From a virus (Duplodnaviria; Heunggongvirae; Uroviricota; Caudoviricetes), in IMG/VR virus record IMGVR_UViG_2778261225_000004: DNA of 20,622 bases; one strand, 5' to 3'. Positions 5,139 through 20,622 of this stretch are shown piece after piece. A model generated the notes under the pieces. It ran no database searches. It had not been told where the DNA came from and worked only from the letters and a program-made list of their open reading frames with translations. Numbering within the stretch: position 1 is the stretch's first letter; each line of letters starts with the position of its first letter. The position numbers and the translations under genes are program-made.

Positions 5139-5632
5139 CAGCACAACTCCGCAAATATTCGCGGGCGGCACAGAATGTCAGAGATGGCCCAGCTCACATC
5201 ACGCCACAAATCCGATGTCTGTATATCCAGTGCGTCCGCCCGGCGGTCGCCCTTATCCGTTGTGTCCGCATCGCGGTAACGCTCCAGAATCAGGGCGCGT
5301 GTGGCGGTATAAACAGCATTGCGCCAGTGCCAGAGATTGACGCTTTCTCCGTTAATTACGGGTGCCGGAACATCGGCCAGCGTCTGATGGCCAGCCGCCT
5401 GCTGTTCCTGCTGCCATGCTTCCAGCTCGCGGGTAACGTGTGCCACCGCCCCGGTGGCGGTATGCAGCAGGCGGGAGGTGGTCACACGGCCCGGCAGTCG
5501 TATCGCCAGACGCAGCTCACGCAGCACAATATCCGGCCAGAATGCGCCCGCTGAAATACGGGTATCACCATCATCGGTATCGGTGATGTCGTCCTCTGCG
5601 GGTCCGGGGTTGGTTCTGGCAACCATACTCAT
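5138..5632 (-). CDS. L: Head completion / stabilisation protein gpL
   Basis: Track ORF 5138..5641 with LADVPA..INGESV..YERYR..ELWRD motifs as in remembered P2 gpL. Start set at the ATG at 5632 (AGGAG 8 nt upstream); the track GTG at 5641 abuts the Shine-Dalgarno. Confidence 0.85.
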   Translation of the reverse strand: MSMVARTNPGPAEDDITDTDDGDTRISAGAFWPDIVLRELRLAIRLPGRVTTSRLLHTATGAVAHVTRELEAWQQEQQAAGHQTLADVPAPVINGESVNLWHWRNAVYTATRALILERYRDADTTDKGDRRADALDIQTSDLWRDVSWAISDILCRPRIFAELC

Positions 5633-5734
5633 GGGGTTCACTCCTGAAAAAAATCGGGCGGTGGGTGCGCGGTGTAAACGGTCACGGAGTCAAACCGGAA
5701 CACCGCGTACGCCGCCCGCTGACGGGGTCAGTCG

Positions 5735-6535: not shown

Positions 6536-6580
6536 TTTTTCTCTCCGTTACAGGCGGGCATGATGCCCGCCGTGAGTTGA

Positions 6581-7633
6581 TTAGCTGTCGGCGAACTTCA
6601 GGCCAGTGACCATCGCGCACTTGCCATAGTCTTCAACGACATAAGCGTCATTGATGGACTGGTAGGTGGCGATGCGGTTGTATTCCGGCTCGTCTTTCAT
6701 CAGGCGACGCATTGAACCTTTCTGCCAGTAAATCGACAGGTTGTTGAACGAGGTGATCAGCATCGTTGCATCCGGGAAGAACGGCGCAAGGAACACGCCC
6801 AGCCCGCCAATGGTGCGCGATGACAGGATGAGCTGCCCGGCGAGTAATTCCGCATTGAGATTCTGGCCGCTGATGCTGTTTAGCACGGGCAGACGCAGCG
6901 AGTTAAACAGGTTGCGCCCCATAATCACCACGAGGTCGTCAGCTTCCTTGTGCCATTCATCCAGCAGGGATGAACGCGCGTCCTGTACCAGTGCATCAGC
7001 GTTCGCATACTTACCCGCGTGCGCCACGGTGTTGTCCATGTTGCGGGAGGTCAGCGTCACGTCATTCATAACGCGTTCGCTGGCGTCGGTTCTGATGTGC
7101 TCCAGCCAGCCCACGTTAACGTCCTGAAGCAGCTTGTTGGTGCTGAAGTTGGACTCATCCGCGTGAGACGTGCCGTTGAAACCGATCATGATGCGGTCAA
7201 GCGCCACCTGTCGGGCAATCTGTGCGCTGATGCGGGACTGAAAATCAGGGTGTGCCGACCAGGCATCAAGCTGCGGATACGAAATAAACGTGTCGTAGTT
7301 CACCTGTTCGCACTGGTATTTGCGGTTTTTCAGATCAACCACGTTATTCGGGTTACGGCGTTTTGTGCCGTCATAACTGGTATTCGTGCGCGCAATTGGC
7401 CCGGTGGTATCCAGGAGGATTTTTTCGCCTTTCTGGTCGGTCACGCCGATCACGTTAATTCTTTTTGTAAATTCGGTGCTTTCCTTTGAGGCGTTTTCAA
7501 AACGCTGCTGTACCGAGGGTTCCACGGTAAATCGCGATACCAGTGCGGAAACCGGGATATTGTTAAGCGACGCCTGCTGCGCCATATAGCAACCCAGCTT
7601 GTTGCGGGTAATATCTGACATCACCAGATTCAT
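6581..7633 (-). CDS. N: Major capsid protein gpN
   Basis: 350-aa ORF with FTVEPSV, GFNG, VGWL, DLVVI.GR, AMLIT..NLSIY and YVVEDY motifs collinear with remembered P2 gpN (357 aa). The start could also be the ATG at 7621, which aligns with the P2 N-terminus. Confidence 0.95.
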   Translation of the reverse strand: MNLVMSDITRNKLGCYMAQQASLNNIPVSALVSRFTVEPSVQQRFENASKESTEFTKRINVIGVTDQKGEKILLDTTGPIARTNTSYDGTKRRNPNNVVDLKNRKYQCEQVNYDTFISYPQLDAWSAHPDFQSRISAQIARQVALDRIMIGFNGTSHADESNFSTNKLLQDVNVGWLEHIRTDASERVMNDVTLTSRNMDNTVAHAGKYANADALVQDARSSLLDEWHKEADDLVVIMGRNLFNSLRLPVLNSISGQNLNAELLAGQLILSSRTIGGLGVFLAPFFPDATMLITSFNNLSIYWQKGSMRRLMKDEPEYNRIATYQSINDAYVVEDYGKCAMVTGLKFADS

Positions 7634-7656
7634 AAAAAATTTGCTCCTTTGTCTTA

Positions 7657-8493
7657 TCAGAAGTCAGCCAGCTGGTCGGAGGCTGCGCCCGTTGCGGTGA
7701 ACCGGTTCTGCGGATCGCCGTCCTGCGTGCGCAGTTTTTCCTTCAGTGCTGCCAGCTCTGTGGTCAGTAAAGTGATTTTCTGGCTGTCCTGCTGATGGCG
7801 GGTTTCCAGCACATTAAAACGGTCGATAATGTCGGCCTGTGACGTTGCGACACCTTCCACCGCTTCCTGAATACGGGAGAAACTGGCGTCATCCGCTTTG
7901 CGGCCACGGCCAATAATCCCCATAACGCGGTTAAACCACTGGGTGCCTTCTTCCTGACGTTGTTCGGTGAGTTCGATAAGTTCTGACTCCATAGCGGCGG
8001 TAAACATCGCCACGTCTCCCTGCTGACAGTTGAATGTCATCAGTTGCATACGTTGTTGTGCCGCAAAGGCCAGACGTTCCGTGCCCAGGCTGGCAGGGGT
8101 GTCGGTCATTGCCAGCCCGCGCAGGTAAGGGCCTCCCGTGATGGTTGACTGTGGTTCCAGCTCAATACTGGAGTAAATTTTTTTACCATCGTTAAGCAGG
8201 GACATCATGCGAGCGGTCGGCTCAATTTCGGCATACAGTGCCGTGCGACCTGCCAGCGGGCCATCGGTTATGTCTTCGGTGCTCAACCCCACAACATCGC
8301 CCATAGCGGAAAACTCGCTACCGGGGAGTGGTGACAGGATGTGCTCAATATTCACACGTGCACCATAAACGGACGGGTTATAACTGGTGGCGGCAGCTTT
8401 CAGCATGTCGCCGTTGATTTCGCGCCCGTCTGCCGTTACACCGGAGACAGCCACGCGAAACTTTTTGCGGGATGTCTTTTTTTCATTAGCCAT
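7657..8493 (-). CDS. O: Capsid scaffolding protein gpO
   Basis: Track ORF 7657..8526; start moved to the ATG at 8493 (MANEKKTSRKKFRVAVSGV, compare P2 gpO MAKKVSKFFRIGVEG) with a GAGGGG Shine-Dalgarno. Contains VYG.R.N.EH and LAMTDTPASLGTE motifs. Confidence 0.9.
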   Translation of the reverse strand: MANEKKTSRKKFRVAVSGVTADGREINGDMLKAAATSYNPSVYGARVNIEHILSPLPGSEFSAMGDVVGLSTEDITDGPLAGRTALYAEIEPTARMMSLLNDGKKIYSSIELEPQSTITGGPYLRGLAMTDTPASLGTERLAFAAQQRMQLMTFNCQQGDVAMFTAAMESELIELTEQRQEEGTQWFNRVMGIIGRGRKADDASFSRIQEAVEGVATSQADIIDRFNVLETRHQQDSQKITLLTTELAALKEKLRTQDGDPQNRFTATGAASDQLADF

Positions 8494-8647
8494 AGTTTTT
8501 GCCCCTCTGACTGGTTCTTCAGTCATGATGGCAAAGCGTAACAGGCTGATACAAAGGTCTTTTGTTGTAAGAAAACGGCCAGAACAGGGGGTTAAGGAGA
8601 ACAGTTTCGCGCGCGGGTAATCTTCCTGTAATTACTCAGGGGGAGCA
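8494..8647. promoter_or_regulatory. Divergent late-promoter region between O (minus) and P (plus)
   Basis: 154-bp non-coding gap between divergently oriented morphogenesis operons, as in P2 where Ogr-dependent late promoters sit here. Contains a partial dyad TGT..ACA near TTGTTGTAAGAAAACGGCCAGAACA; no exact TGT-N12-ACA element was confirmed. Confidence 0.4.
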
Positions 8648-10399
8648 ATGATTCAGGACGCTTTTGTGCGCCAGCGTGCGCGGCAACTTTACTGGCAGGG
8701 TTATCCGCCCGCAGAAATATCACGTCTGATGGGAATAAACCCGAACACGATTTATGCGTGGAAAAAACGCGACCAGTGGGATGAAACGCCACCCGTGCAG
8801 CGTGTCACGCAGTCCATCGATGCGCGCCTCATCCAGCTCACTGAAAAACAGAATAAAACAGGTGGTGACTTCAAGGAAATAGACCTGCTGACCCGGCAGC
8901 TTAAAAAACTGCATGATGGCCAGCCGGATGCGACGGCCACAGGAAAGAAAGGCCGGGCGAAAAAACTCAAAAATCATTTCACGCCGGAACAGATTGCCGC
9001 ACTGCGGGAAAAAATCATCAGCAGGCTGGAGTGGCATCAGCGGGGCTGGTTTGACTCCCTGACCCTTTGCAGGGAAGCCGGGATACGTAACAGGATGATC
9101 CTGAAATCCCGACAGATTGGGGCGACCTGGTATTTTGCACAGGAAGCACTGCTGATGGCGCTGCGTGACGATGTGGCGCAACCTTACCAGCGTAACCAGA
9201 TTTTTTTGTCTGCGTCGCGTCGTCAGGCGTTCCAGTTTAAAAGCATTATTCAGAAGGCCGCGGCTGAAGTTGATGTGGAGCTGAAAGGGGGCGATAAAAT
9301 CATCCTCTCCAACGGCGCAGAGCTGCATTTTCTCGGCACTTCTGCTGCGTCGGCACAGTCCTATACGGGCAATTTTTATTTTGATGAATTTTTCTGGGTC
9401 AGTCGCTTTGCCGAACTGCGCAAGGTGGCTGGCGCTATGGCAACCCTCAGCGGACTGCGGCGCACCTACTTCTCCACGCCATCCACCGAAACGCACGAGG
9501 CATACGCCTACTGGAACGGCGACCGCTGGAACGAGAAAAAGGCCACGCATAAACGCCAGCGTTTTTCTGTGGACTGGAAAACGCTGCATAACGGGCTTAT
9601 CTGCCCTGACCGGACGTGGCGGCAAATTGTCACGCTGGAAGATGTGGTTAAACACGGCTGGAAACACACCGATATCGACGAAATTCGTGATGAAAACACC
9701 GAAGACGAGTTCCTCAATCTCTATATGTGTGAGTTTGTCCGCGAAGGGGAATCGGCATTTAACCTGAATATCCTGATTGGCTGCGGTGTTGACGGATACG
9801 ACGACTGGAAAGACTGGAAACCTTTTGCTCCCCGCCCGATGGGGAATCGTCCGGTATGGATTGGGTATGACGCAAACGGCAGCAGTGGCAACGGCGACAG
9901 CGGCGCTGTGTCCGTGGTGGTTCCTCCGGCTGTTCCTGGTGGCCGTTTTCGAACGGTGGAGACGCGACGCGTTCAGGGGCTGGAGTTTGAAGAACAGGCC
10001 AGAGTCATTGAAGAGTTCACGTGTCGCTACAACGTGGAACACATCGGCATTGATGTGACGGGCGGGAACGGGGAGGCTGTTTATCAGATAGTGAAGCGGT
10101 TTTTCCCTGCTGCTATTCCGTACACCTTCACGCTGTCATCCAAACGGTCGCTGGTACTGAAAATGCTGCAAATAATGCGTGCCGGACGGTGGGAATACGA
10201 TCGCGCCGAACGCGAGCTGGTCGCGGCCTTTAACGCCGTGCGTAAGGTGAAAACACCGGGCGGCTTTATCACTTACGAAACGGACCGCGCGAGGGGGATC
10301 AGCCACGGCGACCTTGCGTGGGCAACCATGCTTGCTGTCATTAACGAACCAATTGGCGGCGAAGGAGAAAACGAGCGTTTCACGGTTATGGAGTTCTGA
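8648..10399 (+). CDS. P: Terminase large (ATPase) subunit gpP
   Basis: 583-aa ORF with LYWQGY, KSRQIGATWYFAQEAL, NQIFLSAS, ELKGG, YFDEFFWV and GYDANG motifs collinear with remembered P2 gpP; GGGGGAG Shine-Dalgarno; stop overlaps the Q start (ATGA). Confidence 0.95.
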   Translation: MIQDAFVRQRARQLYWQGYPPAEISRLMGINPNTIYAWKKRDQWDETPPVQRVTQSIDARLIQLTEKQNKTGGDFKEIDLLTRQLKKLHDGQPDATATGKKGRAKKLKNHFTPEQIAALREKIISRLEWHQRGWFDSLTLCREAGIRNRMILKSRQIGATWYFAQEALLMALRDDVAQPYQRNQIFLSASRRQAFQFKSIIQKAAAEVDVELKGGDKIILSNGAELHFLGTSAASAQSYTGNFYFDEFFWVSRFAELRKVAGAMATLSGLRRTYFSTPSTETHEAYAYWNGDRWNEKKATHKRQRFSVDWKTLHNGLICPDRTWRQIVTLEDVVKHGWKHTDIDEIRDENTEDEFLNLYMCEFVREGESAFNLNILIGCGVDGYDDWKDWKPFAPRPMGNRPVWIGYDANGSSGNGDSGAVSVVVPPAVPGGRFRTVETRRVQGLEFEEQARVIEEFTCRYNVEHIGIDVTGGNGEAVYQIVKRFFPAAIPYTFTLSSKRSLVLKMLQIMRAGRWEYDRAERELVAAFNAVRKVKTPGGFITYETDRARGISHGDLAWATMLAVINEPIGGEGENERFTVMEF

Positions 10400-11445
10400 T
10401 GAGCAGAAAAAATAAAAAAGTGCGCATGAGTTCACGCATTGATCTCGCTGATGCGCTCAGGAAAGAATCATCGCTCAGTGCATTCACATTTGATGGTCCT
10501 TATCGCCTGACCGGGCATGACCTGCTGGACAATATGTACTGTGCTGATAACGGGCGATGGTATGAAACCCCGGTGGACTGGTACGGTCTGGCAAGAGCCG
10601 CCCGGCAAACGTCCTGGCATCAGTCTGCGCTTTACTTTAAGCGCAATGTATTGCTCGGTTGCTACATCCCGCACCCGCTGCTTTCCCGGCAGGATTTCTC
10701 GGCGCTGGCGCTGGACTGGTTTGTGTTCGGTAACGCATTCCTTGAGCTTCGGAGCAATATGCTCGGCGAACCACTTAAATTACGGCACGCACTGGCGAAA
10801 TACATGCGACGCGGAAGCGATCTTGAATCATGGTGGTATGTGCAGGATGGCAAGGACGCGTTTCAGTTTCGCCCTGGCAAAGTGTGCCACCTGATGAATC
10901 CGGACATTAACCAGGAAATTTACGGCATGCCGGAATATCTTGGCGCATTACTCTCGGCCAGCCTGTCTCATTCGGCGGACATGTTCAGAAAACTGTATTA
11001 CGACAATGGATCCCACGCCGGGTGCATCATCTACATCGGTGCAGCGCAGGTAAACCGCGAAAGCATGGACTCCCTGAAAGAAACGTTACAGGGTGCGCGT
11101 GGTGGTGGTGCGTTTAAAAACGTGCTCATCCATGCGCCCAACGGTGGCAAAGAGGGGGTGCAAATTTTGCCGTTCCAGCAGATCACCGCAAAGGATGAGT
11201 TCATGAATGTTAAGGCGGCATCCCGTGATGATGTGCTGGCTGCGCACCGCGTTCCGCCGCAACTGATGGGGGCGATGCCGGGCGAAAAAAGTGCGTTTGG
11301 TGATGTGGAGAAGGCCGCGCGGGTTTACGCAATTAACGAGCTGATGCCCGTCATGGAGGCCATGAAGCACATCAATGACTGGCTTGGCGAAGAGGTGATC
11401 CGCTTTAACCCTTACGCACTGTTAGACACCCAGCCCACATCCTGA
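10399..11445 (+). CDS. Q: Portal protein gpQ
   Basis: 348-aa ORF adjacent to P in the P2 arrangement, with a GGAG Shine-Dalgarno 5 nt before the ATG; size and position match P2 gpQ (344 aa). Confidence 0.93.
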   Translation: MSRKNKKVRMSSRIDLADALRKESSLSAFTFDGPYRLTGHDLLDNMYCADNGRWYETPVDWYGLARAARQTSWHQSALYFKRNVLLGCYIPHPLLSRQDFSALALDWFVFGNAFLELRSNMLGEPLKLRHALAKYMRRGSDLESWWYVQDGKDAFQFRPGKVCHLMNPDINQEIYGMPEYLGALLSASLSHSADMFRKLYYDNGSHAGCIIYIGAAQVNRESMDSLKETLQGARGGGAFKNVLIHAPNGGKEGVQILPFQQITAKDEFMNVKAASRDDVLAAHRVPPQLMGAMPGEKSAFGDVEKAARVYAINELMPVMEAMKHINDWLGEEVIRFNPYALLDTQPTS

Positions 11446-11471
11446 CGCGCTTCGCTTGTCTGCTGCTTCGC

Positions 11472-11496
11472 CGGGGCATAAAAAATTTATGCCCCG
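11472..11496. repeat. Perfect 11-bp inverted repeat (CGGGGCATAAA / TTTATGCCCCG, 3-nt spacer) just downstream of Q; candidate cos-associated or terminator hairpin
   Basis: Read directly from the sequence 27 nt after the Q stop. P2-like cos sites lie next to Q, but the remembered P2/186 19-nt cohesive-end sequence was not found verbatim. Confidence 0.4.
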
Positions 11497-11869
11497 ACTC
11501 TCCAGCTCCTGTATCAGTCAGATAATTTCACGACGCTTTCCTGCTTATTGCCATCATCGACAGTCAGACTCTTACGCAATCCCACCGCGTTGACTGCATG
11601 TTCTCGCCGTCTCAGTGCGATTTTGACGGCCTTACCTTTCACCCCATCAAATCAAAAGCCCTCACGTCTTTTTCACGCTCAGCGTGAGAAATACAGCCAT
11701 TCTGTTGTGTCGCTGCGACATCGTTCAGGGGATGCTATTTACCCCCTGAAACGCGGGCTGTTCCCCCGTCACCTGCGCGCAGAAAAAGCGCGTTTTTTTG
11801 TGCGCGCACGGATCCTTGACGGATCCAGCCGCCACGCGGGCCGGAAGGGTAAAAAGTTGTTCAAAAAAA

Positions 11870-11899
11870 TTGTGCAAATTTGTGCACTATTGTGCAGTA
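11870..11899. repeat. Three direct 10-bp iterons in helical phase (TTGTGCAAAT, TTGTGCACTA, TTGTGCAGTA)
   Basis: Exact 10-bp periodicity of TTGTGCA read from the sequence; preceded by palindromes CTGCGCGCAG and GTGCGCGCAC around 11773..11810 and a GGATCC-N5-GGATCC direct repeat at about 11811..11826. Confidence 0.4.
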
Positions 11900-12136
11900 T
11901 CATTACAGGATGTATATCGCTTCAAATGTGCTATATTTGGTCACATTAAGGCAGCGAAGAAGATGAACTTATCCTTATCGGTGTGACTACACGATATAGC
12001 CTCATCATTGTATGTGTATGGTAGGCGTGATAGCTTACCCCAACAGATTTGGGGGAGGTGGTTGACAACTGTAAAACCATCTCCATGTTAAAAGTAAATT
12101 AGTGATGTTTAAATGATTGAAAAAAGGAGACTAACT

Positions 12137-12181
12137 ATGACCGTACGCCGCACCTATAGCGAAGAAAACTGGGACGTTTAA
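12137..12181 (+). CDS. Leader micro-ORF (14 aa, MTVRRTYSEENWDV) with a strong Shine-Dalgarno
   Basis: AAAAAGGAG sits 8 nt before the ATG. The ORF is followed by CTCCTGTTTTTTT, which can pair with the Shine-Dalgarno region, then by a terminator hairpin. Not on the track because it is below the length cut-off. Confidence 0.25.
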   Translation: MTVRRTYSEENWDV

Positions 12182-12211
12182 CTCCTGTTTTTTTAGAGTA
12201 GTTTCAGTAGA

Positions 12212-12236
12212 ATGGGGGCTTTGGCTCCCATTTTTT
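12212..12236 (+). terminator. Intrinsic terminator-like hairpin (ATGGGGGC-TTTG-GCTCCCAT plus T5) 14 nt upstream of the 198-aa gene start
   Basis: 8-bp stem (one G-U pair), 4-nt loop and a T-run, read from the sequence; its position between a leader ORF and the downstream gene suggests an attenuator. Confidence 0.45.
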
Positions 12237-12249
12237 ATGGTTAAATACA

Positions 12250-12846
12250 ATGGATTTAGTTCTTTCTGCCCTTAGTTACATAGGGAAAATTTTTTCCAGT
12301 ATTTGGGAATCCAGCCCTACGTTTTATCCAGGTGCTGCGGGTGCGCTTATTGCAGTGATTAGCATACGAAATCAGAGAAAGACATCGCGCGAAAAAAACT
12401 CATTGGATTTTGAGGCTGCATATAAACGTAACAAGGACATAGTTGATGCGTGGTCAGAAGTGTTACGCATTCATAAGGATCGCCATAATTTTCCGATCGC
12501 TGATTGGGGAAAAGAAGAATATTCTCAAACAGATGGAGCAAAAGCATTAAAACTCATTTTTAATGAGTGGGAGCGTTGTGCTAATGCCGTGAATAACGGT
12601 TTGTATGATGAGCGGTATCTATATCGTGTTTATGGTTCTACCTTAATCTTTCTTGATGTCCATTTTGAACCTTATATGGAGGAGTGCCGCAAGCGTAATC
12701 CTAGGTTTTACCGTAACTTAAAATGTCTTGCTCTCCGATGGCGTGTTAGGCGAGCGTATGAAGATCAGGAAAACGATAGTAGGGAATACAAAAAACTGCT
12801 CAATGAGGCTAAGCGATTGGTAGACAAATTGCATACCAAATTCTGA
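12250..12846 (+). CDS. Hypothetical protein, 198 aa, single N-terminal transmembrane anchor plus a charged soluble domain; cargo gene at the P2 tin/old-equivalent position
   Basis: Clean ORF in an AT-rich island (visibly lower GC than the flanking phage genes). The N-terminus (FYPGAAGALIAVISI) is hydrophobic; the rest is Lys/Arg/Glu/Tyr-rich. It has its own terminator and is convergent to parR. No family was recognised from memory. Confidence 0.75.
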   Translation: MDLVLSALSYIGKIFSSIWESSPTFYPGAAGALIAVISIRNQRKTSREKNSLDFEAAYKRNKDIVDAWSEVLRIHKDRHNFPIADWGKEEYSQTDGAKALKLIFNEWERCANAVNNGLYDERYLYRVYGSTLIFLDVHFEPYMEECRKRNPRFYRNLKCLALRWRVRRAYEDQENDSREYKKLLNEAKRLVDKLHTKF

Positions 12847-12884
12847 TTTTGCATGCTTTGTGCTTCATGGCTTCTTGAATGGGA

Positions 12885-12918
12885 CATCAGGGCGAGTTCG
12901 CCCTGATGTTGTGTTATT
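12885..12918 (+). terminator. Intrinsic terminator (10-bp perfect stem CATCAGGGCG/CGCCCTGATG, loop AGTT, then TTGTGTTATT)
   Basis: Read from the sequence 39 nt after the stop of the 198-aa gene; the U-tract overlaps the stop of convergent parR. Confidence 0.6.
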
Positions 12919-13225
12919 CAGGAAATAACGCCCGGATATTTCCTGCCATCTGACTGGTTATCTGTGCGGTTGGTACTGGCTGTGACATGGGGCGTTCGGT
13001 CCTGGTTTGCGTCACTGATAACGCCTCATCGTCAGCCCATGCAGCCAGTCGGTAAGCCTCTGCCGGATTCATTTTCAGAAGTGCCAGCCCGGCCAGAAAA
13101 GCCACGCGTTGGCCGCTTTTGCGGGCTTCTGGTGTAAGGCTGTCCAGCCAGGCGCATGCATCGCCTTCGTTCTTGACGGCGGCGGGCTTCAGATAGAAAC
13201 TTATCCGTCTGGTTGGTGTCGTCAT
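12914..13225 (-). CDS. parR: ParR-like centromere-binding protein (type II partition adaptor)
   Basis: Internal ATG of track ORF 12914..13360, 5 nt downstream of the parM stop. The N-terminus RRISFYLKP..AWLDSLTPEARKSGQRVAFLAGLALL and the C-terminal IRALFPE resemble remembered plasmid R1 ParR (RTIAFKLNP..LTAGLALY..LRSLFPKE). Confidence 0.7.
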   Translation of the reverse strand: MTTPTRRISFYLKPAAVKNEGDACAWLDSLTPEARKSGQRVAFLAGLALLKMNPAEAYRLAAWADDEALSVTQTRTERPMSQPVPTAQITSQMAGNIRALFPE

Positions 13226-13229
13226 TGGT

Positions 13230-14189
13230 TTACTCCTTGTCCATTGCGTACAGCCCATTAACCAGAGCAAACTGTGGCACCCCGTCCGTGATGAAAGTCG
13301 CATTAACTCCGCAGGCTTCGCGGATAGCGGGTGCCACAATCTCCGCCCCGCCACCGACAACCATCACCCGCCCGTAACCCGAAAAAACCGCCAGCGCGCG
13401 GATCACGCGTTGTTTCAGTGTTTCTTCCTTTTCACGAATAACCGCCATCAGGCTGGCGTAATGCGCGTCATTGTGGATGTGCTGGCGCAGCCAGGCTTCA
13501 TCATGGCGATGTTCGATAATGGTATTGGCGATGTGGTGACTGGTACGCATACCGTTAGTGGCCATCACCGACAGTACGGCATCGGCCATCAGGGAAACGC
13601 CTACGTGTGGATCGCAAAACATCTGGCTGATACCTGCCAGTTGCCCCTGAACCTTTGCCACATCCAGCGTGGTTCCGCCCAAATCCACAATCAGCAGGGA
13701 TTCAAACGGACTCATGTCAGCCAGTGCCTTAAAGCCAGCCGGAATGGATTCAGGCATAACCCGTACGTTACGGATAGTGAATGCTTCGCCGTTCTGGTAC
13801 TCCACCGGGCGCATGACGTTCGCTTTTTTGCGGTTGATGTTGGCCATGTCCGGCTGTGCGTTTGTGTCGAAATATTCGCTCAGTGGCAGGGTGACAACCA
13901 CATCCACTTCCTGTGGTGTGATGCCTGATTTGACCAGCGCGTGGTGAATGGCGATTACATTCACATCGCTGTACTGGTATTGCGTGTCGGTCGTCTGGAC
14001 AAAGCGATCGCTGACCGGATCAAAACCATAGCGCACGCCATCAAGCATGTAGTTCGCGGGCTGCGTGCCACCGAACGGCGCAGACCATTCCGACTTGAAG
14101 CTGTTCGGGCTGATGGCGTTGCGGCGTTCGCCGTTCTCAGTCCATGCCAGCTTGATGTTGGTGGAGCCGTCGTCGATACAAATTTTCAT
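13230..14189 (-). CDS. parM: ParM/StbA-like actin-like segregation ATPase
   Basis: 319-aa ORF with actin-fold motifs collinear with remembered R1 ParM: CIDDGSTNIKLAW, YSDVNVIAIHHAL, VMPESIPAG, LLIVDLGGTTLDV, GVSL, VMVVGGGAE and a C-terminal LVNGLY. Confidence 0.85.
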   Translation of the reverse strand: MKICIDDGSTNIKLAWTENGERRNAISPNSFKSEWSAPFGGTQPANYMLDGVRYGFDPVSDRFVQTTDTQYQYSDVNVIAIHHALVKSGITPQEVDVVVTLPLSEYFDTNAQPDMANINRKKANVMRPVEYQNGEAFTIRNVRVMPESIPAGFKALADMSPFESLLIVDLGGTTLDVAKVQGQLAGISQMFCDPHVGVSLMADAVLSVMATNGMRTSHHIANTIIEHRHDEAWLRQHIHNDAHYASLMAVIREKEETLKQRVIRALAVFSGYGRVMVVGGGAEIVAPAIREACGVNATFITDGVPQFALVNGLYAMDKE

Positions 14190-14225
14190 GTAGCTTTTCC
14201 TTATGTTGATTAATTAATCGGTTAC

Positions 14226-14260
14226 AGGATTTTTAAATCCCGCTTTTGCCTGTTTTGTGC
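14226..14260. repeat. Repeat module A (hairpin GGATTT..AAATCC followed by CGCTTTTGCCTGTTTTGTG) in the parM upstream region
   Basis: Read from the sequence; similar in composition to module B 74 bp away; lies in the 76-bp gap between the A stop and the parM start. Confidence 0.3.
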
Positions 14261-14265
14261 GCGCT

Positions 14266-17088
14266 TCATATATCGCGGCGTGTTTTTTGCTCATTTACGG
14301 GATTTGTGAGTCCCGTTTCTGTCTGTTTTTTGTTTCCACTGGTCAGGCTACCCCGCAGCAGGTCTGCTTTGCGGTGGGCGCGTTCAGTGGTTTCACTGAT
14401 TCTCTGTGCGTGCTCTGCGTCACGGATGGCGCGCAGCATGTCAGAAAGCACGGTAACGGGGGTTTTCATGGTGTTCTGGTCCTGCTGAAGTGTGGATGCC
14501 AGACGTGCGGCGGCTTCGGGGTCTGATGCCCCCAGTTGTTCCAGATAGCTGGCGACCGGGTTATGGCGGATCTCTGTGCTGCTTACGCCGTGATTACGGC
14601 TCAGGCGCTGCCAGAGCTGCGTGATTCGGCTGTCCGGGCGGGTATCCGGTTTGCGTACAATTTCAAATCCCTGCGGTGCAATGATGCTGCCGTCAACGTA
14701 CAGGCTGCCGCCCCGTAACAGGTGCTGCATCTGCTGTTCACCGATATGCAGGCCGAGAGATTCGGCAGATTCCCGCCATTCTTTAGCGAGTAATTCGTGG
14801 TTATCAGGCAAAGGCCGCTGCTGTTTGCGGCTCTGTGTCCAGCTCTGCATTTCATCACTGCTGTTTTTTGCCTGTTTGTCACGAAGCGAACGCATCAGCG
14901 CCCGGCGTTCGTGCCGTTTCAGTGAGCGCATCCATTCGTTCACTTCAACGCCATCAGGGAGCTGCGGCCACGGTGCTGGCCGTTCTTCCGGCTGTTCTGT
15001 CCCGTTGTTGTTCGTTTCCTGTACACGGGGACAGTTATTGCCACGAGTCCAAGGGGCGGCAGGGCCGCCCTGAAGGTCAAAACCATTTTCGCGGGCGCTG
15101 TCTTCCGCTTCCGGTTTGCGTCTTACCAGCTTCCAGTTATCCGGATGCGTGCACACACGGGAGGATTCCCCGATGAGTGGTGACCAGATCCCGTAAATCT
15201 GTACGCTCTGTTCGCCGTAATCGTTCAGCTCATCGGCGAGGTCGTAGGCGGTGCGAATCAGGTAGTCTTTGCGTGGAACAAGTACGCCGCCCTGTTTCTC
15301 TATGTAGGTGGCAAAACATCCTGCATCAGCGGCAGCGAGTACCGCATCCATTGCGTCATCCTTCAGCCGTTGCGGGCCTTCCGGGTTGCGTGCCATCTGG
15401 CTGGCAAGGCGGCGGAGTTCACGCCACACCTGACGGGAGGGGATGCCAAAGAACTGGAACTGGCGGACCCGGTGAAGGCGTGCCCAACCGATGGCGCGCT
15501 CCACGCTCTCGGCCATTGATTTTCCGGTTTCGTGGTCAACGCGTGGTTTGCCTGTTTTCGGGTCGATGCCATCCACGGCGCGGCTGTCCAGGTTTTTTCC
15601 GATGTAGGTGGCGATGTAGCTGGTTGGCGTGCCTTTTGAGCCGTCGACATACTCCGCCTTAAAGCGCGGAGTAATATCATCGCCCAGCTCGTGACGATCT
15701 TCCTGAATGGCAATATCGCGGGTGTGGGACACAATGGTGTCGATTTCTTCCGGATGAGCAAAGACCATCATATGCCAGTGCACGGTGCCGTCATGGTGAG
15801 GCTCCACCGTGCGGATGCCATACCAGCGAAGACCGTCGCGGTTCAGTTTCTTGCGGACCGCCGCAAAAAACGTGTTAACCAGGTAATCGCTGGAGTCGCG
15901 CATGGTGGCCCCGTTCCATTTGGGATTCGGATGACCGTTCTCTGTTGTGGCGTGGTATTTTGACGGGCAGGTGACAGTCAGAAACACCGCTTTGTCGCCA
16001 CGGGCTTCGGCCAGAAGTTCCAGCCCCTTCATGGTGGCCATCATTTCTGCCTTACGGTGAACCGGGTTACTTACTCCCGCGTAATACACCGTCTCGAGAT
16101 CAATCGTGAACCCGTCTTCATTTTCCAGCATGAAACTTTTCAGGAAATCGCGTGTTTTCTCGCGCTGTGCGCGAAACTCGCTTAACGCGTCCTGGCTCAG
16201 ATAGGGTGATGTTTTTCTGGAAACCAGACAGGCGGCGCGGAGTTGTTCTTCTCTCCACTCGCAACGTAACAGCCACAGTTTGCGTTTCCACCATTCTGCA
16301 CAGGTCAGGCGAAGGATTGCGCCCGGCAGCAGCTCCGTGTCCGGTTCGTTCCTCCGGTCTTTGTCTGTTGTAAGTGCGTCATAATGTGGAGGCATGGCGT
16401 GCAGGTGTAACGCCATGCGGGCCAGCATCTGATACGCCTTCAGCGTTACATCCATGGTCAGTTCGCCATCGGTCGCGCCAAAGCCATCGCAGAGTTTTTC
16501 GAAGGTGCTGCTGAACATCGCCGCCGTCATGGTGGCCAGTGTCTGTATCTGGTGTTTGTTGAGCTGCGGCAGGTAAAGCAAATCGTCCAGGCGTTCGCGT
16601 CCGGCAAGGGAGCGATAACCCTGTGTCAGCCAGCGGTGATCGGTGCGCTCCAGACGTTCGAATATTTTGCGCAGGTTTCCGCGCGCGTAGCGTTCAGCCT
16701 GCCAGTTCTTTTTGCCTTTCTGACGATCGGCTTCCTGTTTTTTGCGCAGGAAGGAGAGGTGGCGAATAAGCGGATCGCGCAGATAGGACGGCAGCAGGCG
16801 CAGCGAGGCCATGGCTTCATCCACCGCGCCGCGTGCCTGTTTTCTGGCATCTCCTGCCAGTGTGATGGTTTTGTCCTGTTTTTCCTGTGCGTCCAGGCTT
16901 TTATTAATCAGGTTGCCCAGCGGCGTTGCGGAGAACGCCGCATCAGCCATTTCCTGGCGGCGCTCGTTCTCTACCCGGTAGGCATCCAGCCAGGAGGAAA
17001 GCGCGGATTCAGGAGCGGGGATCCCCGTTCCTTCACGCCCCACTGCGTGGCGCGGTTGTTGCCAGTCCCTGATGTACTCTGCCGTCAT
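14266..17088 (-). CDS. A: Replication initiation protein gpA (rolling-circle replication endonuclease) with an extended C-terminus
   Basis: 940-aa ORF at the P2 gene A position (downstream of the early operon, next to the cos-proximal cargo region). The size and a VHWHMMVF-type motif fit the P2 gpA family; about 180 aa longer than remembered P2 gpA (761 aa). Confidence 0.88.
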   Translation of the reverse strand: MTAEYIRDWQQPRHAVGREGTGIPAPESALSSWLDAYRVENERRQEMADAAFSATPLGNLINKSLDAQEKQDKTITLAGDARKQARGAVDEAMASLRLLPSYLRDPLIRHLSFLRKKQEADRQKGKKNWQAERYARGNLRKIFERLERTDHRWLTQGYRSLAGRERLDDLLYLPQLNKHQIQTLATMTAAMFSSTFEKLCDGFGATDGELTMDVTLKAYQMLARMALHLHAMPPHYDALTTDKDRRNEPDTELLPGAILRLTCAEWWKRKLWLLRCEWREEQLRAACLVSRKTSPYLSQDALSEFRAQREKTRDFLKSFMLENEDGFTIDLETVYYAGVSNPVHRKAEMMATMKGLELLAEARGDKAVFLTVTCPSKYHATTENGHPNPKWNGATMRDSSDYLVNTFFAAVRKKLNRDGLRWYGIRTVEPHHDGTVHWHMMVFAHPEEIDTIVSHTRDIAIQEDRHELGDDITPRFKAEYVDGSKGTPTSYIATYIGKNLDSRAVDGIDPKTGKPRVDHETGKSMAESVERAIGWARLHRVRQFQFFGIPSRQVWRELRRLASQMARNPEGPQRLKDDAMDAVLAAADAGCFATYIEKQGGVLVPRKDYLIRTAYDLADELNDYGEQSVQIYGIWSPLIGESSRVCTHPDNWKLVRRKPEAEDSARENGFDLQGGPAAPWTRGNNCPRVQETNNNGTEQPEERPAPWPQLPDGVEVNEWMRSLKRHERRALMRSLRDKQAKNSSDEMQSWTQSRKQQRPLPDNHELLAKEWRESAESLGLHIGEQQMQHLLRGGSLYVDGSIIAPQGFEIVRKPDTRPDSRITQLWQRLSRNHGVSSTEIRHNPVASYLEQLGASDPEAAARLASTLQQDQNTMKTPVTVLSDMLRAIRDAEHAQRISETTERAHRKADLLRGSLTSGNKKQTETGLTNPVNEQKTRRDI
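14299..14338. repeat. Repeat module B (hairpin CGGGA-TTTGTGAG-TCCCG followed by TTTCTGTCTGTTTTTTG) inside the 3' end of gene A
   Basis: Read from the sequence; a direct-repeat partner of module A. Homopolymer lengths in this stretch are uncertain. Confidence 0.3.
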
Positions 17089-17094
17089 AGTGAT

Positions 17095-17460
17095 TTACTT
17101 CGTCATGCCATTCAGGGTGTCGCGGCAGACTGTAGCCAGCCGCTGAATTTCCAGCACGGTGTCTTCTGTGTCGGCATGGCGATGTGTGATGCGGATGCTG
17201 TCGGCAATCACATCGACGATTGCAGAGGATGGGTGCTGGTAAATGCCAATAACGGACGGGGTGCCACCTTCAATGCGGTAAAGCCTGTAATTTCCCTCGT
17301 GGCTGTCAATCATGTAGCGACCATCAATAACAATCTTTCCGTCAGCGAGCTGCGGTACAGGCAGGGATTTCAGGTACATGTCATAACGATCACGCACGCG
17401 AGCGGCAAGATCACGTTCTGTGTTGAGCAGGTATTCAAGAAAGTCGTTGGCGAGAATCAT
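17095..17460 (-). CDS. Hypothetical early-operon protein (121 aa) immediately upstream of A
   Basis: ATG with an AGAGGA Shine-Dalgarno; stop lies 6 nt before the A start; protein-like composition. No family recognised. Confidence 0.55.
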   Translation of the reverse strand: MILANDFLEYLLNTERDLAARVRDRYDMYLKSLPVPQLADGKIVIDGRYMIDSHEGNYRLYRIEGGTPSVIGIYQHPSSAIVDVIADSIRITHRHADTEDTVLEIQRLATVCRDTLNGMTK

Positions 17461-17532
17461 TGCGGCAATCCTCTTGTTACAGATGTGCGAAGGCCTCCCG
17501 CCGCAAGGTGCAGGAAAGGCCCGGAACAGGAA

Positions 17533-17763
17533 TTAATGGAGTTTGTTTTGCTGCTGGATGAGCTGTTGAAGCTCGTGCAGATCATCCGCCAGATAGCTGA
17601 AAACAGAGGCGGAATAAATGTTTGATAGTGCGTGGCTGCGCTCATGCAGCATATTGATGTGCATGATTTGCGCGACGCGTGATGCGCGGGAAAGTCTGCG
17701 GTTGATTTCAGTCTGGATGTGACGACGCTCCGCGATAGCGCGGTGTGGTTTGCGGTTTGCCAT
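17533..17763 (-). CDS. Hypothetical small basic protein (76 aa)
   Basis: ATG start with an AAGGGG Shine-Dalgarno-like element; same strand as the early operon. No family recognised. Confidence 0.45.
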   Translation of the reverse strand: MANRKPHRAIAERRHIQTEINRRLSRASRVAQIMHINMLHERSHALSNIYSASVFSYLADDLHELQQLIQQQNKLH

Positions 17764-18085
17764 GGTGTGGCCCCTTGTGTAGTAAGTTGTGAAAACTCAC
17801 CATCCAGAGCTGCGAAACTGTGGGTGGCGAGACGTACGAGGTTCGCAGTACCGGCTACACAAGAACCCGGCCCGACCGAAGTCGGCCCCGTACGCCCCGC
17901 CATAATTCTGACGCGAAAAAAACGTGGCAATACAGTACGCACAAAAAAACCGCTGGCGCGGTTGTGCGCTTGTGTAGTCAGCAGGCTGCGAAACCCGGCA
18001 CCCGTTTTGTGAGGTGCAGCGGAAATGTAACCTGACTGATTGCGGCATGGCAAGCGGTTTTTTTGTGTGTGCATGTTCTGGTTTC
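17764..18085 (-). other. 322-bp non-coding block inside the early operon with repeated CTTGTGTAG and CTGCGAA(A)C modules (two direct, one inverted) and stable hairpins; candidate structured RNA or protein-binding/ori-like element
   Basis: No credible ORF on either strand (track ORFs here are Arg/Pro-rich or low-complexity). Motif CTTGTGTAG at about 17774 and 17969 with its reverse complement at about 17855; CTGCGAAAC at about 17810 and 17986 with GTTCGCAG at 17841; GC-rich hairpin with a C-UUCG-G loop on the minus-strand transcript at about 17866..17890; CCGCTGGCGCGG preceded by A7 at about 17943..17962. Confidence 0.3.
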
Positions 18086-18385
18086 TTAGTGGTTCAGAAA
18101 AAAATCAAAAACCTTGTCAATGCGTTGCAGCAGCTCTTGCTGTATTGCTTCCGGCGTTTCCGGTTCGCCTGGCGCCTCCAACGTCGCGCAGAAATCCTCG
18201 ATTTCATGACGGAGCGTCAGGCGAATGGCGAGAGGTGTGGTTCTGGCGTGCTCCAGCTCATCCAGCAGCGCCAGCACTGCAGACGGCGAGAGCATTGCGC
18301 GAAACGCCAGTAATTTTTGAGGCGTTGCCATTCGTTGCAGGTCAGTCGCCAGTTCGCGTAATTCCTGGTGGTTGATGGCGCTCAT
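18086..18385 (-). CDS. Hypothetical acidic early-operon protein (99 aa)
   Basis: ATG overlaps the upstream stop (ATGA coupling); protein-like composition. No family recognised. Confidence 0.55.
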   Translation of the reverse strand: MSAINHQELRELATDLQRMATPQKLLAFRAMLSPSAVLALLDELEHARTTPLAIRLTLRHEIEDFCATLEAPGEPETPEAIQQELLQRIDKVFDFFLNH

Positions 18386-18627
18386 GCTCTGGCTTCCTTC
18401 AGTAGCTGGTTAAACATGTTGGTAAGTGGATTGCCGCACCCGAACGGCATCGGGTTTATCTGGTAAGAAAAGCGACCGCCTGTTTTGCGCTCTTTTCTTA
18501 TGACTGAACCGCTGCGCCAGAGTCGGCGTAACTCCGCATTAATGGCTGTGGTTGGGGTATTCAGTGCTGCGGCGATTTCTCCACCGCTACACCCCGGATT
18601 GGCGGCGATATAGTCCAGAATGGTCAT
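18382..18627 (-). CDS. Small putative winged-helix DNA-binding protein (81 aa)
   Basis: ATG overlaps the upstream stop (ATGA); the segment GGEIAAALNTPTTAINAELRRLWRSGSV looks like a helix-turn-helix. Fold assignment is inference only. Confidence 0.5.
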   Translation of the reverse strand: MTILDYIAANPGCSGGEIAAALNTPTTAINAELRRLWRSGSVIRKERKTGGRFSYQINPMPFGCGNPLTNMFNQLLKEARA

Positions 18628-18827
18628 CTGCGTGACTCCTGTACCTGTCGGATAAGGTTCACCCGCACCACATTCGTGGCGCAGAAGTAAGTGCCGTCAG
18701 TGAGATAGATGTGATGTGCATTCTTTTCTGAACGGTGTTTGTCGATTGTGGTAATCAGGCGTTCGTCGACTTCGTATTCACGCCCTCTGGAGGTAAAACG
18801 AACGACAGGAAAATGCTTAATTGCCAT
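18624..18827 (-). CDS. Hypothetical early-operon protein (67 aa)
   Basis: Strong AAGGAGGTG Shine-Dalgarno before the ATG at 18827. Confidence 0.55.
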   Translation of the reverse strand: MAIKHFPVVRFTSRGREYEVDERLITTIDKHRSEKNAHHIYLTDGTYFCATNVVRVNLIRQVQESRR

Positions 18828-18913
18828 TACACCTCCTTGGCGTGTGCGAATACCTCCGCGAATGCGGATTGTTTTTACATTTTCTTATTTAATCTGTGGT
18901 TTTATTTGCTCTG

Positions 18914-19027
18914 TTATTCGCCAGTGAAAAAGCGTTCAATCTTTTTTATTGAATGAATAATTCGCATAATCCCAATAGCGCAGGCCACCGAAATAATCAG
19001 AACAAGCCATGAGATAAATATACTCAT
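18914..19027 (-). CDS. Micro-ORF encoding a 37-aa single-pass membrane peptide (MSIFISWLVLIISVACAIGIMRIIHSIKKIERFFTGE)
   Basis: ATG overlaps the stop of the upstream 80-aa gene (ATGA); hydrophobic helix followed by a basic tail. Below the track length cut-off; found by manual translation. Confidence 0.3.
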   Translation of the reverse strand: MSIFISWLVLIISVACAIGIMRIIHSIKKIERFFTGE

Positions 19028-19266
19028 GCGATATTCCCCAGCTTATACGGTTCAATATGTTCCCCGCATTCTGCGGCACAGATCAGCTCGGAAAGTTCGT
19101 TAAGTGCATCCAGATCATCAGCGTAAAAAGCCACGTCATACAGACTTCGGATTGCTCTGGTCAATGAGTCACGGGCCGCACGTTCAGCATGAGCGCCTGA
19201 TGCACTTAAGCGAAAATAAAAACGCTCAAGTGCTTTGTTAATGAGAGTTTTATATTCTTTGCCCAT
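19024..19266 (-). CDS. Hypothetical early-operon protein (80 aa)
   Basis: Track ORF 19024..19269 (GTG); the ATG at 19266 is preferred. Protein-like acidic composition. Confidence 0.5.
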   Translation of the reverse strand: MGKEYKTLINKALERFYFRLSASGAHAERAARDSLTRAIRSLYDVAFYADDLDALNELSELICAAECGEHIEPYKLGNIA

Positions 19267-19277
19267 CACAACGCCCT

Positions 19278-19565
19278 TTAATCTGCTTTCTGTATTTCAG
19301 CTTCTGAATCCATACAAATAATTTCGATATAGGGTTCATCGCCATTAACCTGGCGTGCCTTTTCAGCTTCGCTAATGATTTCTCGTACGGTCTGGTACGG
19401 AAGTTCCACAAGCAGTCGCGTGCCGTTCAGATAAACGTAAGTGGCTTCGTCGGCTCCGTTTTTACCCGCCGGAGTCACTCCGTCAATAGCGGATGCACGT
19501 AATAACAGTTCACCGCGAAAATCAATAAAACGGATAAATACACCTTGTGCATGGTCTTTGGTCAT
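19278..19565 (-). CDS. Hypothetical early-operon protein (95 aa)
   Basis: Internal ATG of track ORF 19278..19679, chosen because the upstream part overlaps the 113-aa ORF; starts 10 nt after that ORF's stop. Confidence 0.45.
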   Translation of the reverse strand: MTKDHAQGVFIRFIDFRGELLLRASAIDGVTPAGKNGADEATYVYLNGTRLLVELPYQTVREIISEAEKARQVNGDEPYIEIICMDSEAEIQKAD

Positions 19566-19575
19566 AAAGCGCCTG

Positions 19576-19917
19576 TTATAAATCAGCCTGTTTAATAAAA
19601 CTTTGCCCGCGAAGCAGACGATCAACCGTGCGAAGTGCTTCGTATAATGTGAAATCCTGCCCGAACTGATTGTCGCCACTGCTTAGAGCAAAAATGCGGT
19701 TTCCGGTAAACGGATTGCGTGGGCATTTGTGGATCACGATTCCAGCTTTCTCAATCAGCCAGGCATGCTCGCCGATTTGTTTTACTGGGTAGCCATCCGG
19801 CGTTGCGTGTGTATCACTCAGGCTGTAGCGGATGTTGCTGCGTGATGCACTGGTAGCAAAACGGTTAGCGTGGCGTTCTGCACCATTGCGAAAGCGTGAA
19901 TTACGTTGCTGTTTCAT
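19576..19917 (-). CDS. Hypothetical early-operon protein (113 aa)
   Basis: ATG at 19917 lies 1 nt after the stop of an upstream micro-ORF (translational coupling). No family recognised. Confidence 0.5.
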   Translation of the reverse strand: MKQQRNSRFRNGAERHANRFATSASRSNIRYSLSDTHATPDGYPVKQIGEHAWLIEKAGIVIHKCPRNPFTGNRIFALSSGDNQFGQDFTLYEALRTVDRLLRGQSFIKQADL

Positions 19918-19918
19918 G

Positions 19919-20026
19919 TTAAAGACTCTGTACAGATTTAATTATTCCGGCATAGAGGCCGAACTCAAAATATTTGCGATTAAATCGCATCGCATTGTTT
20001 TCACGTTTTGCGGACTGCTGGTTCAT
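19919..20026 (-). CDS. Micro-ORF, 35 aa (MNQQSAKRENNAMRFNRKYFEFGLYAGIIKSVQSL)
   Basis: GGAGG Shine-Dalgarno about 10 nt before the ATG; ATG overlaps the stop of the preceding micro-ORF (ATGA). Found by manual translation. Confidence 0.25.
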   Translation of the reverse strand: MNQQSAKRENNAMRFNRKYFEFGLYAGIIKSVQSL

Positions 20027-20130
20027 TTTCGTTTGCCTCCGCACATGAGAATTGCGCCGCTTAAGAGGTAACCGAAGTTAATTGATAGTATTACAATTAA
20101 CATAAGGTCCAATTTGTCCATGCCACACAT
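20023..20130 (-). CDS. Micro-ORF encoding a 35-aa hydrophobic peptide (MCGMDKLDLMLIVILSINFGYLLSGAILMCGGKRK)
   Basis: GAGGGT Shine-Dalgarno before the ATG at 20130; one transmembrane-like helix and a basic C-terminus. Found by manual translation. Confidence 0.25.
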   Translation of the reverse strand: MCGMDKLDLMLIVILSINFGYLLSGAILMCGGKRK

Positions 20131-20169
20131 AATTACCCTCATTGCAGTAGTTGTGGGTTGTCAGGTTTC

Positions 20170-20376
20170 TCACCCGATAAACCAGATAACAAACGCTATA
20201 AACATCGCCCCAATAGCTGCCGGGAAAAGTCCTTTGGTATAAGCGGCGATATATTCAATGCTGAGTTCAATAAAGCGTTCTTCATGTCCCGTTAACTTGC
20301 GAAACAAATAGATCTCTATTACGCCTATCTCAATAAAAACAAGGGTCAGAATGGCGCTGATGATATGGCTGGTCAT
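20170..20376 (-). CDS. Small membrane protein (68 aa, two predicted transmembrane helices)
   Basis: Track ORF with hydrophobic segments ISAILTLVFIEIGVI and AAIGAMFIAFVIWFIG; first gene downstream of cox in the early operon. Confidence 0.5.
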   Translation of the reverse strand: MTSHIISAILTLVFIEIGVIEIYLFRKLTGHEERFIELSIEYIAAYTKGLFPAAIGAMFIAFVIWFIG

Positions 20377-20382
20377 TTATGA

Positions 20383-20622
20383 CTAAAGTCCCAGCCACAA
20401 CAACCATGCGTCGCGGCGTTCTTTCGGTTGCTCAAAAAACGCTTTGCGCATGCCTTCGTTAAATGCTGGCAGATATACCCAGTTTTCTGATGCACGCGTC
20501 TTTACTGAACCTGGTTTCACAAAGTCAATTGTCGGTAGCTTTGCTCTGAGAGATCCCCTCATAATTTCCCCAAAACGTAACCATGTGTGAATAGATTTTG
20601 AGTAAGCAGGGTTGCAGCCACG
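20383..20622 (-). CDS. cox: Cox-like excisionase/transcriptional regulator, C-terminal part; the 5' end lies beyond the window
   Basis: Manual translation of the minus strand gives ..AKLPTIDFVKPGSVKTRASENWVYLPAFNEGMRKAFFEQPKERRDAWLLWLGL, closely matching the remembered C-terminal half of P2 Cox (..GKLPVIDMTDPQSASGRAGEYWVYLPAWNNGLKLAYESRPKEIRDGWLMWLGL). The frame stays open to the window edge. Confidence 0.7.
   Translation of the reverse strand, partial: RGCNPAYSKSIHTWLRFGEIMRGSLRAKLPTIDFVKPGSVKTRASENWVYLPAFNEGMRKAFFEQPKERRDAWLLWLGL

Follow-up and report, generated by a model that had tools for sequence, protein, structure and literature searches.

The closest described relatives of the locus reported here are the ParMRC systems of plasmids R1 and R100, type II partition systems in which parM precedes parR and repeats lie directly 5' of parM in two blocks. 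The C-terminal region of R1 ParR binds ParM, and a hallmark of the type is residence on an autonomous low-copy replicon. In the Corynebacterium glutamicum prophage CGP3, the AlpAC system is induced early and its adaptor binds repeats 5' of its own operon; loss of AlpAC halves the copy number of CGP3 phage DNA, and the system is needed for full phage DNA replication (PMC4446434). Phage KS14 combines a P2-type virion module with the plasmid maintenance genes RepB and ParA and has no tyrosine integrase (PMC3091744). Pfeifer et al. (2021) flagged the partition genes of phage P88, scored P88 as a phage-plasmid, and suggest a dual lifestyle (PMC7969092). Here, we analyze a parM/parR cassette in a 20,622-nt stretch of viral DNA (IMG/VR record IMGVR_UViG_2778261225_000004, Caudoviricetes; the whole stretch is called the window below), which an earlier note on this DNA had described as intact partition genes in a P2-like phage. 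We favor, at a probability of roughly 0.55, the reading that the cassette is a working ParMRC system whose substrate is the free phage circle, which exists for a short time once the phage has infected a cell or been excised.

The two genes are what they had been taken for, and the coordinates given earlier for both reading frames are exact (Table 1). ParM matches the Pfam models StbA_N (E 1.8e-82, 275 bits) and ParM C-terminal domain (E 2.1e-68), both far above the cut-offs, and its residues 2-316 match the sequences of R1 ParM structures (1mwk and others; E 1.4e-92). Identity to R100 ParM is 47% over the full length (E 2e-109), and the ATP-binding and catalytic motifs are the same as those of R1 and R100: phosphate-1 IDDGSTNIKL, catalytic MPESIPAG, phosphate-2 DLGGTTLD, and adenosine GGGAE. 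The homology to the R1 and R100 proteins is overwhelming rather than spurious, and all nucleotide-binding motifs are intact, so the idea that parM might be a pseudogene fails. NCBIfam returned only sub-threshold matches for the cassette proteins. Its ParM equivalog model, which stands for another lineage of ParM, scored 18 bits where 417 are required.

ParR matches the Pfam family Plasmid_stab_B (the StbB/ParR family; E 3.6e-24, 84.8 bits, cut-off 25) and PHROG 2515, 'partition protein' (E 2.7e-58). Its N-terminal 56 residues are 34% identical to R100 ParR (E 3e-8) and include an R-x3-F-x3-P strand of the ribbon-helix-helix type that is conserved in an alignment with eleven phage and plasmid ParRs. 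Its C-terminal motif, QMAGNIRALFPE, aligns with the C-terminus of R100 ParR and takes the form (R/K)xNAxxLF in other ParRs. The phage protein has 103 residues compared to 116 and lacks a 12-residue segment of plasmid ParRs. As in R1 and R100, parR comes after parM, its ATG lying 4 nt past the parM stop; a 148-aa open reading frame (ORF) with a TTG start (12914..13360) was rejected as parR, given that it overlaps parM and that the real start is this ATG. ParR found no match among PDB sequences even at E 10. An AlphaFold model of the ParR monomer (from 28 alleles) had a predicted local distance difference test score (pLDDT) of 56 and a predicted template modeling score (pTM) of 0.30, with the C-terminal motif predicted as helical at low confidence; low scores of this kind are as expected of an obligate dimer and make the model too poor for fold searching. 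The molecular identity of the pair as ParM and ParR is near certain.

Table 1. Features of the partition locus and its surroundings; positions count from the first letter of the window.
Feature	Position	Strand	Description
parM	13230..14189	-	Actin-fold ATPase, 319 aa, ATG start
parR	12914..13225 (including stop codon)	-	Predicted ribbon-helix-helix adaptor, 103 aa, ATG at 13225
Candidate parC repeat A	14295..14332	-	Inside the last codons of gene A
Palindromic core of repeat A, GGGACTCACAAATCCC	14299-14314		125 nt 5' of the parM ATG
Candidate parC repeat B	14222..14259	-	38-nt direct repeat, within the 76 bp that separate gene A from parM
16-bp core of repeat B, GGGATTTAAAAATCCT	14226-14241		52 nt 5' of the parM ATG
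Gene A, replication endonuclease	14266..17088	-	940 aa, directly upstream of parM; Phage_GPA, E 2e-131
Hairpin	12883..12910		Perfect 12-bp hairpin, arms 100% complementary, directly past the parR stop
DUF4760 gene	12250..12846	+	Context, not part of the cassette; Pfam DUF4760, E 1.2e-24

The element that carries the cassette belongs to the family Peduoviridae, genus Xuanwuvirus (P88-like phages of the P2 family), and the gene order of the window is that of the P88 record. In all 14 Xuanwuvirus phage records, parM comes directly after gene A. From parR to the 3' end of gene A, the window is 94-98% identical at the nucleotide level to P88, P884B11, 520873, 503458, Shae_phiSM, and others; the ParM proteins of intact P88-like records are 97.5-99.1% identical, and that of the frameshifted record 503458 is 95% identical. 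These records already label the two genes as ParM and partition protein. The module occupies the same position past gene A in NC_026014, NC_049391, NC_049344, and Citrobacter phage Shae_phiSM, and the differences concern only allelic detail and the neighboring cargo, which is the DUF4760 gene here and other small genes in P88.

The arrangement extends beyond this genus. P2-like prophages of Hafnia, Plesiomonas, Serratia, and Enterobacter encode ParMs of 54-62% identity in the order gene A, zero to two small ORFs, parM, parR, variable genes, (ogr) portal, terminase. Conservation in related prophages, which the earlier note had proposed to check, is therefore found at the same position across five genera, including that of E. 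coli. The note had also placed the cassette in a variable cargo position. Instead, parM and the 5' end of parR lie in a conserved block in 14 of 14 P88-like records, the position is kept in the four other genera, and only the DUF4760 gene is cargo. In E. coli, this type of gene A is present at a coverage of at least 80% in 1321 genomes and parMR in 1278, showing that the two travel together. On these grounds, we regard the module as ancestral to P88-like and related temperate P2-family phages and as conserved in them, at the replication end of their early genes.

Such conservation bears on where the genes came from. The family is typical of plasmids, with a ParM homologue in at least 5000 plasmid records, and captured plasmid DNA was one of the origins first proposed; a recent capture, or a decaying remnant without function, nevertheless strikes us as very improbable. 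The best ParM from a true plasmid is only ~52% identical and none falls between 60% and 95%; the ParMs that we checked at 53% identity or below sit in plasmid or conjugative-element (ICE) contexts. Given that no near plasmid ParM exists and that the phage ParMs group together (with weak support, given below), any capture would be ancient. The GC content of the cassette (0.54-0.57) is that of the phage backbone, and the synteny across five genera is likewise at odds with recent arrival. Among seven E. coli copies, the ratio of nonsynonymous to synonymous substitution rates is 0.02-0.13 for parM, 0.07-0.13 for gene A, and 0.10-0.37 for parR; parM is under strong purifying selection, similar to or stronger than that on gene A. 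The parMR reading frames are intact in all seven copies, and near-full-length copies occur in over 1270 genomes, which argues against a remnant. So does E. coli UTAK-13, where a degraded P88-like prophage (locus L010, 4001-6795) has a gene A cut by IS3 and a shortened integrase and retains full-length, intact parM and parR.

Plasmid ParMRC systems carry their centromere next to parM, with the iterons of R1/R100 directly 5' of the gene. In the DNA studied here, a pairwise repeat search recovered two 38-nt repeats, 79% identical and offset by 73 bp, with a score reached by 0 of 300 dinucleotide-preserving shuffles; in the R100 parC control, it recovered two iteron blocks at an offset of 105. Tandem Repeats Finder reported nothing near parM; the repeats are dispersed, and only the pairwise search reveals them. 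Each repeat contains a 16-bp core, GGGA-N8-TCC(C/T). The string CGGGA-N8-WCC occurs four times in the window, where 1.0 is expected, and three of the four matches fall at the candidate centromere sites.

The same sites recur in other lineages. Counted from the parM ATG, GGGA-N8-WCC[CT] lies at -125/-52 in E. coli, -131/-59 in Plesiomonas, and -128/-55 in Hafnia, and the DNA around these sites is otherwise not alignable among the three; elsewhere in each 15-20 kb locus, there are only one to three matches. This motif was defined after seeing the data, and the evidence lies in the positional agreement, not in the match count. In Hafnia, the ORF 5' of parM is not gene A, so the candidate sites track parM rather than gene A. 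Of the gene A product, only residues 179-503 fall within the Pfam GPA domain; its length varies (940 aa here, 785-835 aa in the Hafnia, Plesiomonas, and Enterobacter relatives, 907 in Serratia), and the long C-terminal extension ends inside candidate repeat A. On sequence grounds, the two 38-nt repeats are a likely candidate for the centromere, and the last codons of gene A probably double as a protein-binding site.

The candidate centromere resembles the bipartite plan of R1/R100 and differs in its parts: where the plasmids have ten A/C-rich 11-bp iterons, the phage has two repeats with palindromic cores, and one of the phage blocks lies inside coding DNA. The cassette as a whole stands at the end of a replication gene block in an integrating phage, not in a free-standing autoregulated operon. 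We also observed an AT-rich ATTAATCAA followed by ATAAGG at 14200-14221, directly 5' of the parM ribosome-binding site. This ATTAATCAA-ATAAGG element is common to the E. coli, Plesiomonas, and Hafnia lineages (6437-6450 in locus L006; 7965-7985 in locus L004), with flanks that are not alignable, and it may serve as a -10-like element or in regulation.

Complete E. coli genomes show where the cassette resides. It is present in 1307 of 5426 (~24%), in up to three copies per genome, and of its 1455 places, 1453 are chromosomal and only 2 are on plasmids; this is not the autonomous low-copy residence that marks type II partition. The prophage of E. coli SCU-101, the closest genome, is integrated beside pdxB, with integrase, C repressor, and Cox encoded in the prophage itself. 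An extrachromosomal phage-plasmid stage, another possibility raised at the outset, is thus not borne out in stable form: the element is found integrated, except for one circular record of 34.4 kb, and stable plasmid lysogeny is at most rare.

That record, pZ1323PEC0009-2 (34,461 bp), is a point in favor of the dual lifestyle suggested for P88, in which P88-like phages would either integrate or persist as a stable low-copy plasmid prophage served by ParMRC. It is a complete P88-like genome deposited as a circular 'plasmid', the only phage-sized circle that we found in the plasmid database. KS14 provides a precedent for a P2-like plasmid prophage (PMC3091744), and P88-like genomes carry hok/gef, a plasmid-type post-segregational killer. 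We nevertheless think a dual lifestyle improbable in view of the chromosomal census. The circle retains its integrase, and a sister isolate has in its chromosome an integrated phage to which the first 10 kb of the circle are 99.9% identical, such that the circle may be excised or replicating DNA. The remaining plasmid-database matches are a linear degraded contig from Shigella boydii and IS26-bounded prophage fragments on an IncC plasmid, together with several very large 'plasmid' records. Among seven proteins scanned for replication initiators (12250-18385), only gene A (Phage_GPA) matched, and no plasmid-type initiator was seen. KS14 and phage-plasmids of the D6/P1 type are extrachromosomal and have plasmid-type initiators, whereas the element described here has an integrase and a gene A rolling-circle replicon and is found integrated; the likeness to D6 lies in its ParM/StbA, 47% identical to the window ParM. 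The hok/gef-family toxin gene lies near ogr (P88 34928-35068; pZ1323PEC0009-2 1291-1431), in a part of the genome beyond the window, and P88-like phages thus hold homologues of both R1 stability loci, parA (ParMRC) and parB (hok/sok).

The two proteins differ sharply in how much they vary. Across thousands of E. coli sequences, ParM is 92-99% identical, whereas ParR alleles range from 51 to 95%. In an alignment of 28 ParR alleles, the strand RRISFYLKP and the C-terminal NI[RQ]xLFPE are invariant, and there is next to no variation in residues 1-18 or in the last eight; the linker (residues 67-92) is hypervariable, with many P, Q, S, and T residues, and the helical domain occurs in two main versions, with mosaic alleles such as P0147. 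A recombination breakpoint lies within parR: prophages of the O157:H7, O104:H4, and ST131 types match the window only from 13171 on, which leaves out the 3' four-fifths of parR (12914-13171), and their ParRs are 50-55% identical to the window ParR while their ParMs are about 98-99% identical.

This polymorphism, the breakpoint inside parR, and the presence of up to three copies in one genome could point to action on other replicons, as a determinant of competition or incompatibility. ParR would titrate or occupy the centromeres of related prophages or ParMRC plasmids in the same cell, or ParM would co-polymerize with plasmid ParM, to the detriment of rivals or the exclusion of superinfecting relatives. 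The cassette also borders a hotspot that houses defense genes in P2-like phages (PMC13586616). Even so, we regard this explanation as unlikely, more so than the dual lifestyle. The variation in ParR falls mostly in the disordered linker; PADLOC found no match for ParM, ParR, the DUF4760 protein, or two early proteins; the cross-genus synteny is what one expects of a core function rather than of defense cargo; and with phage ParM only ~47-52% identical to plasmid ParMs, co-polymerization is doubtful. We saw no co-variation between the ParR allele and the sequence of the candidate DNA sites, which fits an invariant strand predicted to read the DNA and adds no positive support for ParR binding. 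The simplest reading of the ParR polymorphism is recombination at the hotspot boundary combined with a weakly constrained linker; selection for avoiding incompatibility among co-resident prophages (three or fewer per genome) is possible but unsupported.

We return to the reading that we favor, a ParMRC system working on the free phage circle. Given that integration, by an integrase of its own, is the normal state of the prophage, the free circular genome, present only transiently after infection or excision, would be the most likely substrate. P2-type replication yields monomeric circles, which are also the packaging substrate. ParR dimers would sit on the two repeats with GGGA-N8-TCCC, one on either side of the gene A stop and just 5' of parM, and the conserved C-terminal helix of ParR would catch the ends of ParM-ATP filaments, whose insertional growth would drive the ParR-bound DNA molecules apart by the R1 mechanism. 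The benefit could be dispersal or positioning of replicating circles, as proposed by comparison with AlpAC; alternatively or in addition, copies could be delivered to both daughter cells before integration. The biological role, the binding of ParR to the repeats, and the time of expression are what we infer from the comparisons above.

AlpAC of CGP3 is the best functional analogy, and by that analogy, a co-opted role for the actin-like filament, the third option of the earlier note, is plausible. What AlpC, AlpA, and alpS share with the phage cassette is the genomic setting only, an actin-like ATPase and a DNA-binding adaptor in an integrated prophage. In AlpAC, the adaptor gene comes first, AlpC is a distant actin-like protein without the dynamic instability of ParM, and the host is Gram-positive and the prophage large and cryptic. 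A bolder version of the favored reading places a ParM spindle in a short plasmid-like phase: with ParR at the two gene A-adjacent sites, ParM filaments would separate the replicating circles, lysogenization or burst efficiency would rise, and in hosts or conditions where integration fails, the phage could survive as a partitioned episome. We hold this version only tentatively.

The genes around the cassette suggest when it might be expressed. On the minus strand, a tightly packed array of genes runs from cox to parR and ends in the perfect 12-bp hairpin. Rfam identifies two RNAs on this strand, the isrK Hfq-binding RNA (17943-18017, 64 bits, cut-off 50) and a C4 antisense RNA (17820-17907, 83 bits, cut-off 45). 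Both lie in a 322-bp gap just 5' of the gene at 17533-17763, whose P88 counterpart is called 'derepression protein' and which heads a block made up of derepression protein, an ORF, gene A, parM, and parR. isrK itself ends in a strong terminator-like hairpin (17963-17948). In phage P1, C4 RNA controls the antirepressor operon. By analogy, this P2-family phage may use c4/antirepressor control of the P1 type, and the replication-partition block may be gated in lysogens.

A scan for sigma-70-like promoters found no site between 11400 and 14700, but the same scan misses the known promoter of R100 parC; what it reports for the Serratia and Enterobacter relatives overlaps the start codon. We had considered taking this null result as a sign of co-transcription with gene A and dropped the argument, given that a scan blind to the R100 parC promoter is uninformative. 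A search for LexA boxes (CTGT-N8-ACAG) gave six matches compared to 6.3 expected, and none is near the operon.

Several observations weigh against the idea that the cassette partitions free phage circles. Of 50,697 phage records searched by tblastn, those with the cassette are P88-like phages and the phage-plasmid D6 alone. Many P2-like phages, among them P2 and 186, lack the module, and the P2 lifestyle therefore does not depend on it. A neighbor-joining tree unites the phage-context ParMs in a single clade, with weak support (54 of 100 bootstraps). There are only two clear centromere sites compared to ten 11-bp iterons in R1 parC, and whether they would build a full segrosome is uncertain. 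The Serratia and Enterobacter relatives carry another layout, with inverted arms of 14 and 20 nt (GGGAAC...AGAAAAAT) that are 26-28 nt apart within a 155-bp gap. We infer the timing of expression, and an autonomous parM promoter active in lysogens is possible. In the literature searched, we found no experiments on ParMR of P88-type or P2-like phages.

Past parR, the conserved block gives way to a variable hotspot, which starts inside or just past parR and extends to the portal gene (region 11446-12913). Homology to P88-like phages ends at ~12885, past the parR hairpin, or at ~13171, inside parR, for the other allele types. The hairpin marks the end of the conserved block and is a bidirectional terminator-like element shared with the convergent DUF4760 gene; it is kept in P88 and pZ1323PEC0009-2 and replaced in the other parR allele types. 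The portal and terminase genes lie downstream of the cassette on the other strand, with capsid genes nearby.

The DUF4760 gene has a GC content of 0.41-0.43 compared to about 0.55 in its flanks and is absent from P88-like phage records. It is bracketed by hairpins, and its product has one predicted N-terminal membrane helix. Other elements carry other cargo at this position: small unrelated genes in P88, DUF4760 together with a 280-aa protein in O157:H7, HicAB in Serratia (locus L007, 9450-10084), and a KAP NTPase in Enterobacter (locus L008, 9411-10757).

The window is a recombinant relative of the SCU-101 prophage. Positions 11435-20545 are 99.9% identical to that genome, and the left part, 4635-11408, is 95.3% identical. 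The right part contains the cargo, parMR, and the early genes, and the left part the head, lysis, terminase, and portal genes. SCU-101 has ~613 extra bases directly past the portal gene, including a 174-aa ORF.

Much of this was already on record. The GenBank and RefSeq entries for P88 and well over a thousand E. coli chromosomes annotate ParM and a 'partition protein', and it has been noted in print that partition genes are odd in a phage that integrates (Pfeifer et al. 2021). Our additions are incremental: the synteny across genera, a candidate two-site centromere, the contrast in variability between ParM and ParR, and the census of chromosomes and plasmids.

A partition system is usually taken as the signature of a plasmid; here, ParM and ParR are kept in integrating phages of at least five enterobacterial genera. 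For annotation, this carries a warning, in that an E. coli chromosomal gene labeled 'plasmid segregation protein ParM' is usually the sign of a P88-like prophage and not of an integrated plasmid. If the cassette acts on the free phage circle, partition machinery would be a general tool for handling viral DNA in cells, with a bearing on phage-plasmid calls made from gene content alone, as for P88. If the reading with a transient ParM spindle and an episome is true, an integrating P2-family phage would be a facultative phage-plasmid, and a classical ParMRC system would for the first time be seen to serve a chromosomal prophage in a Gram-negative host.

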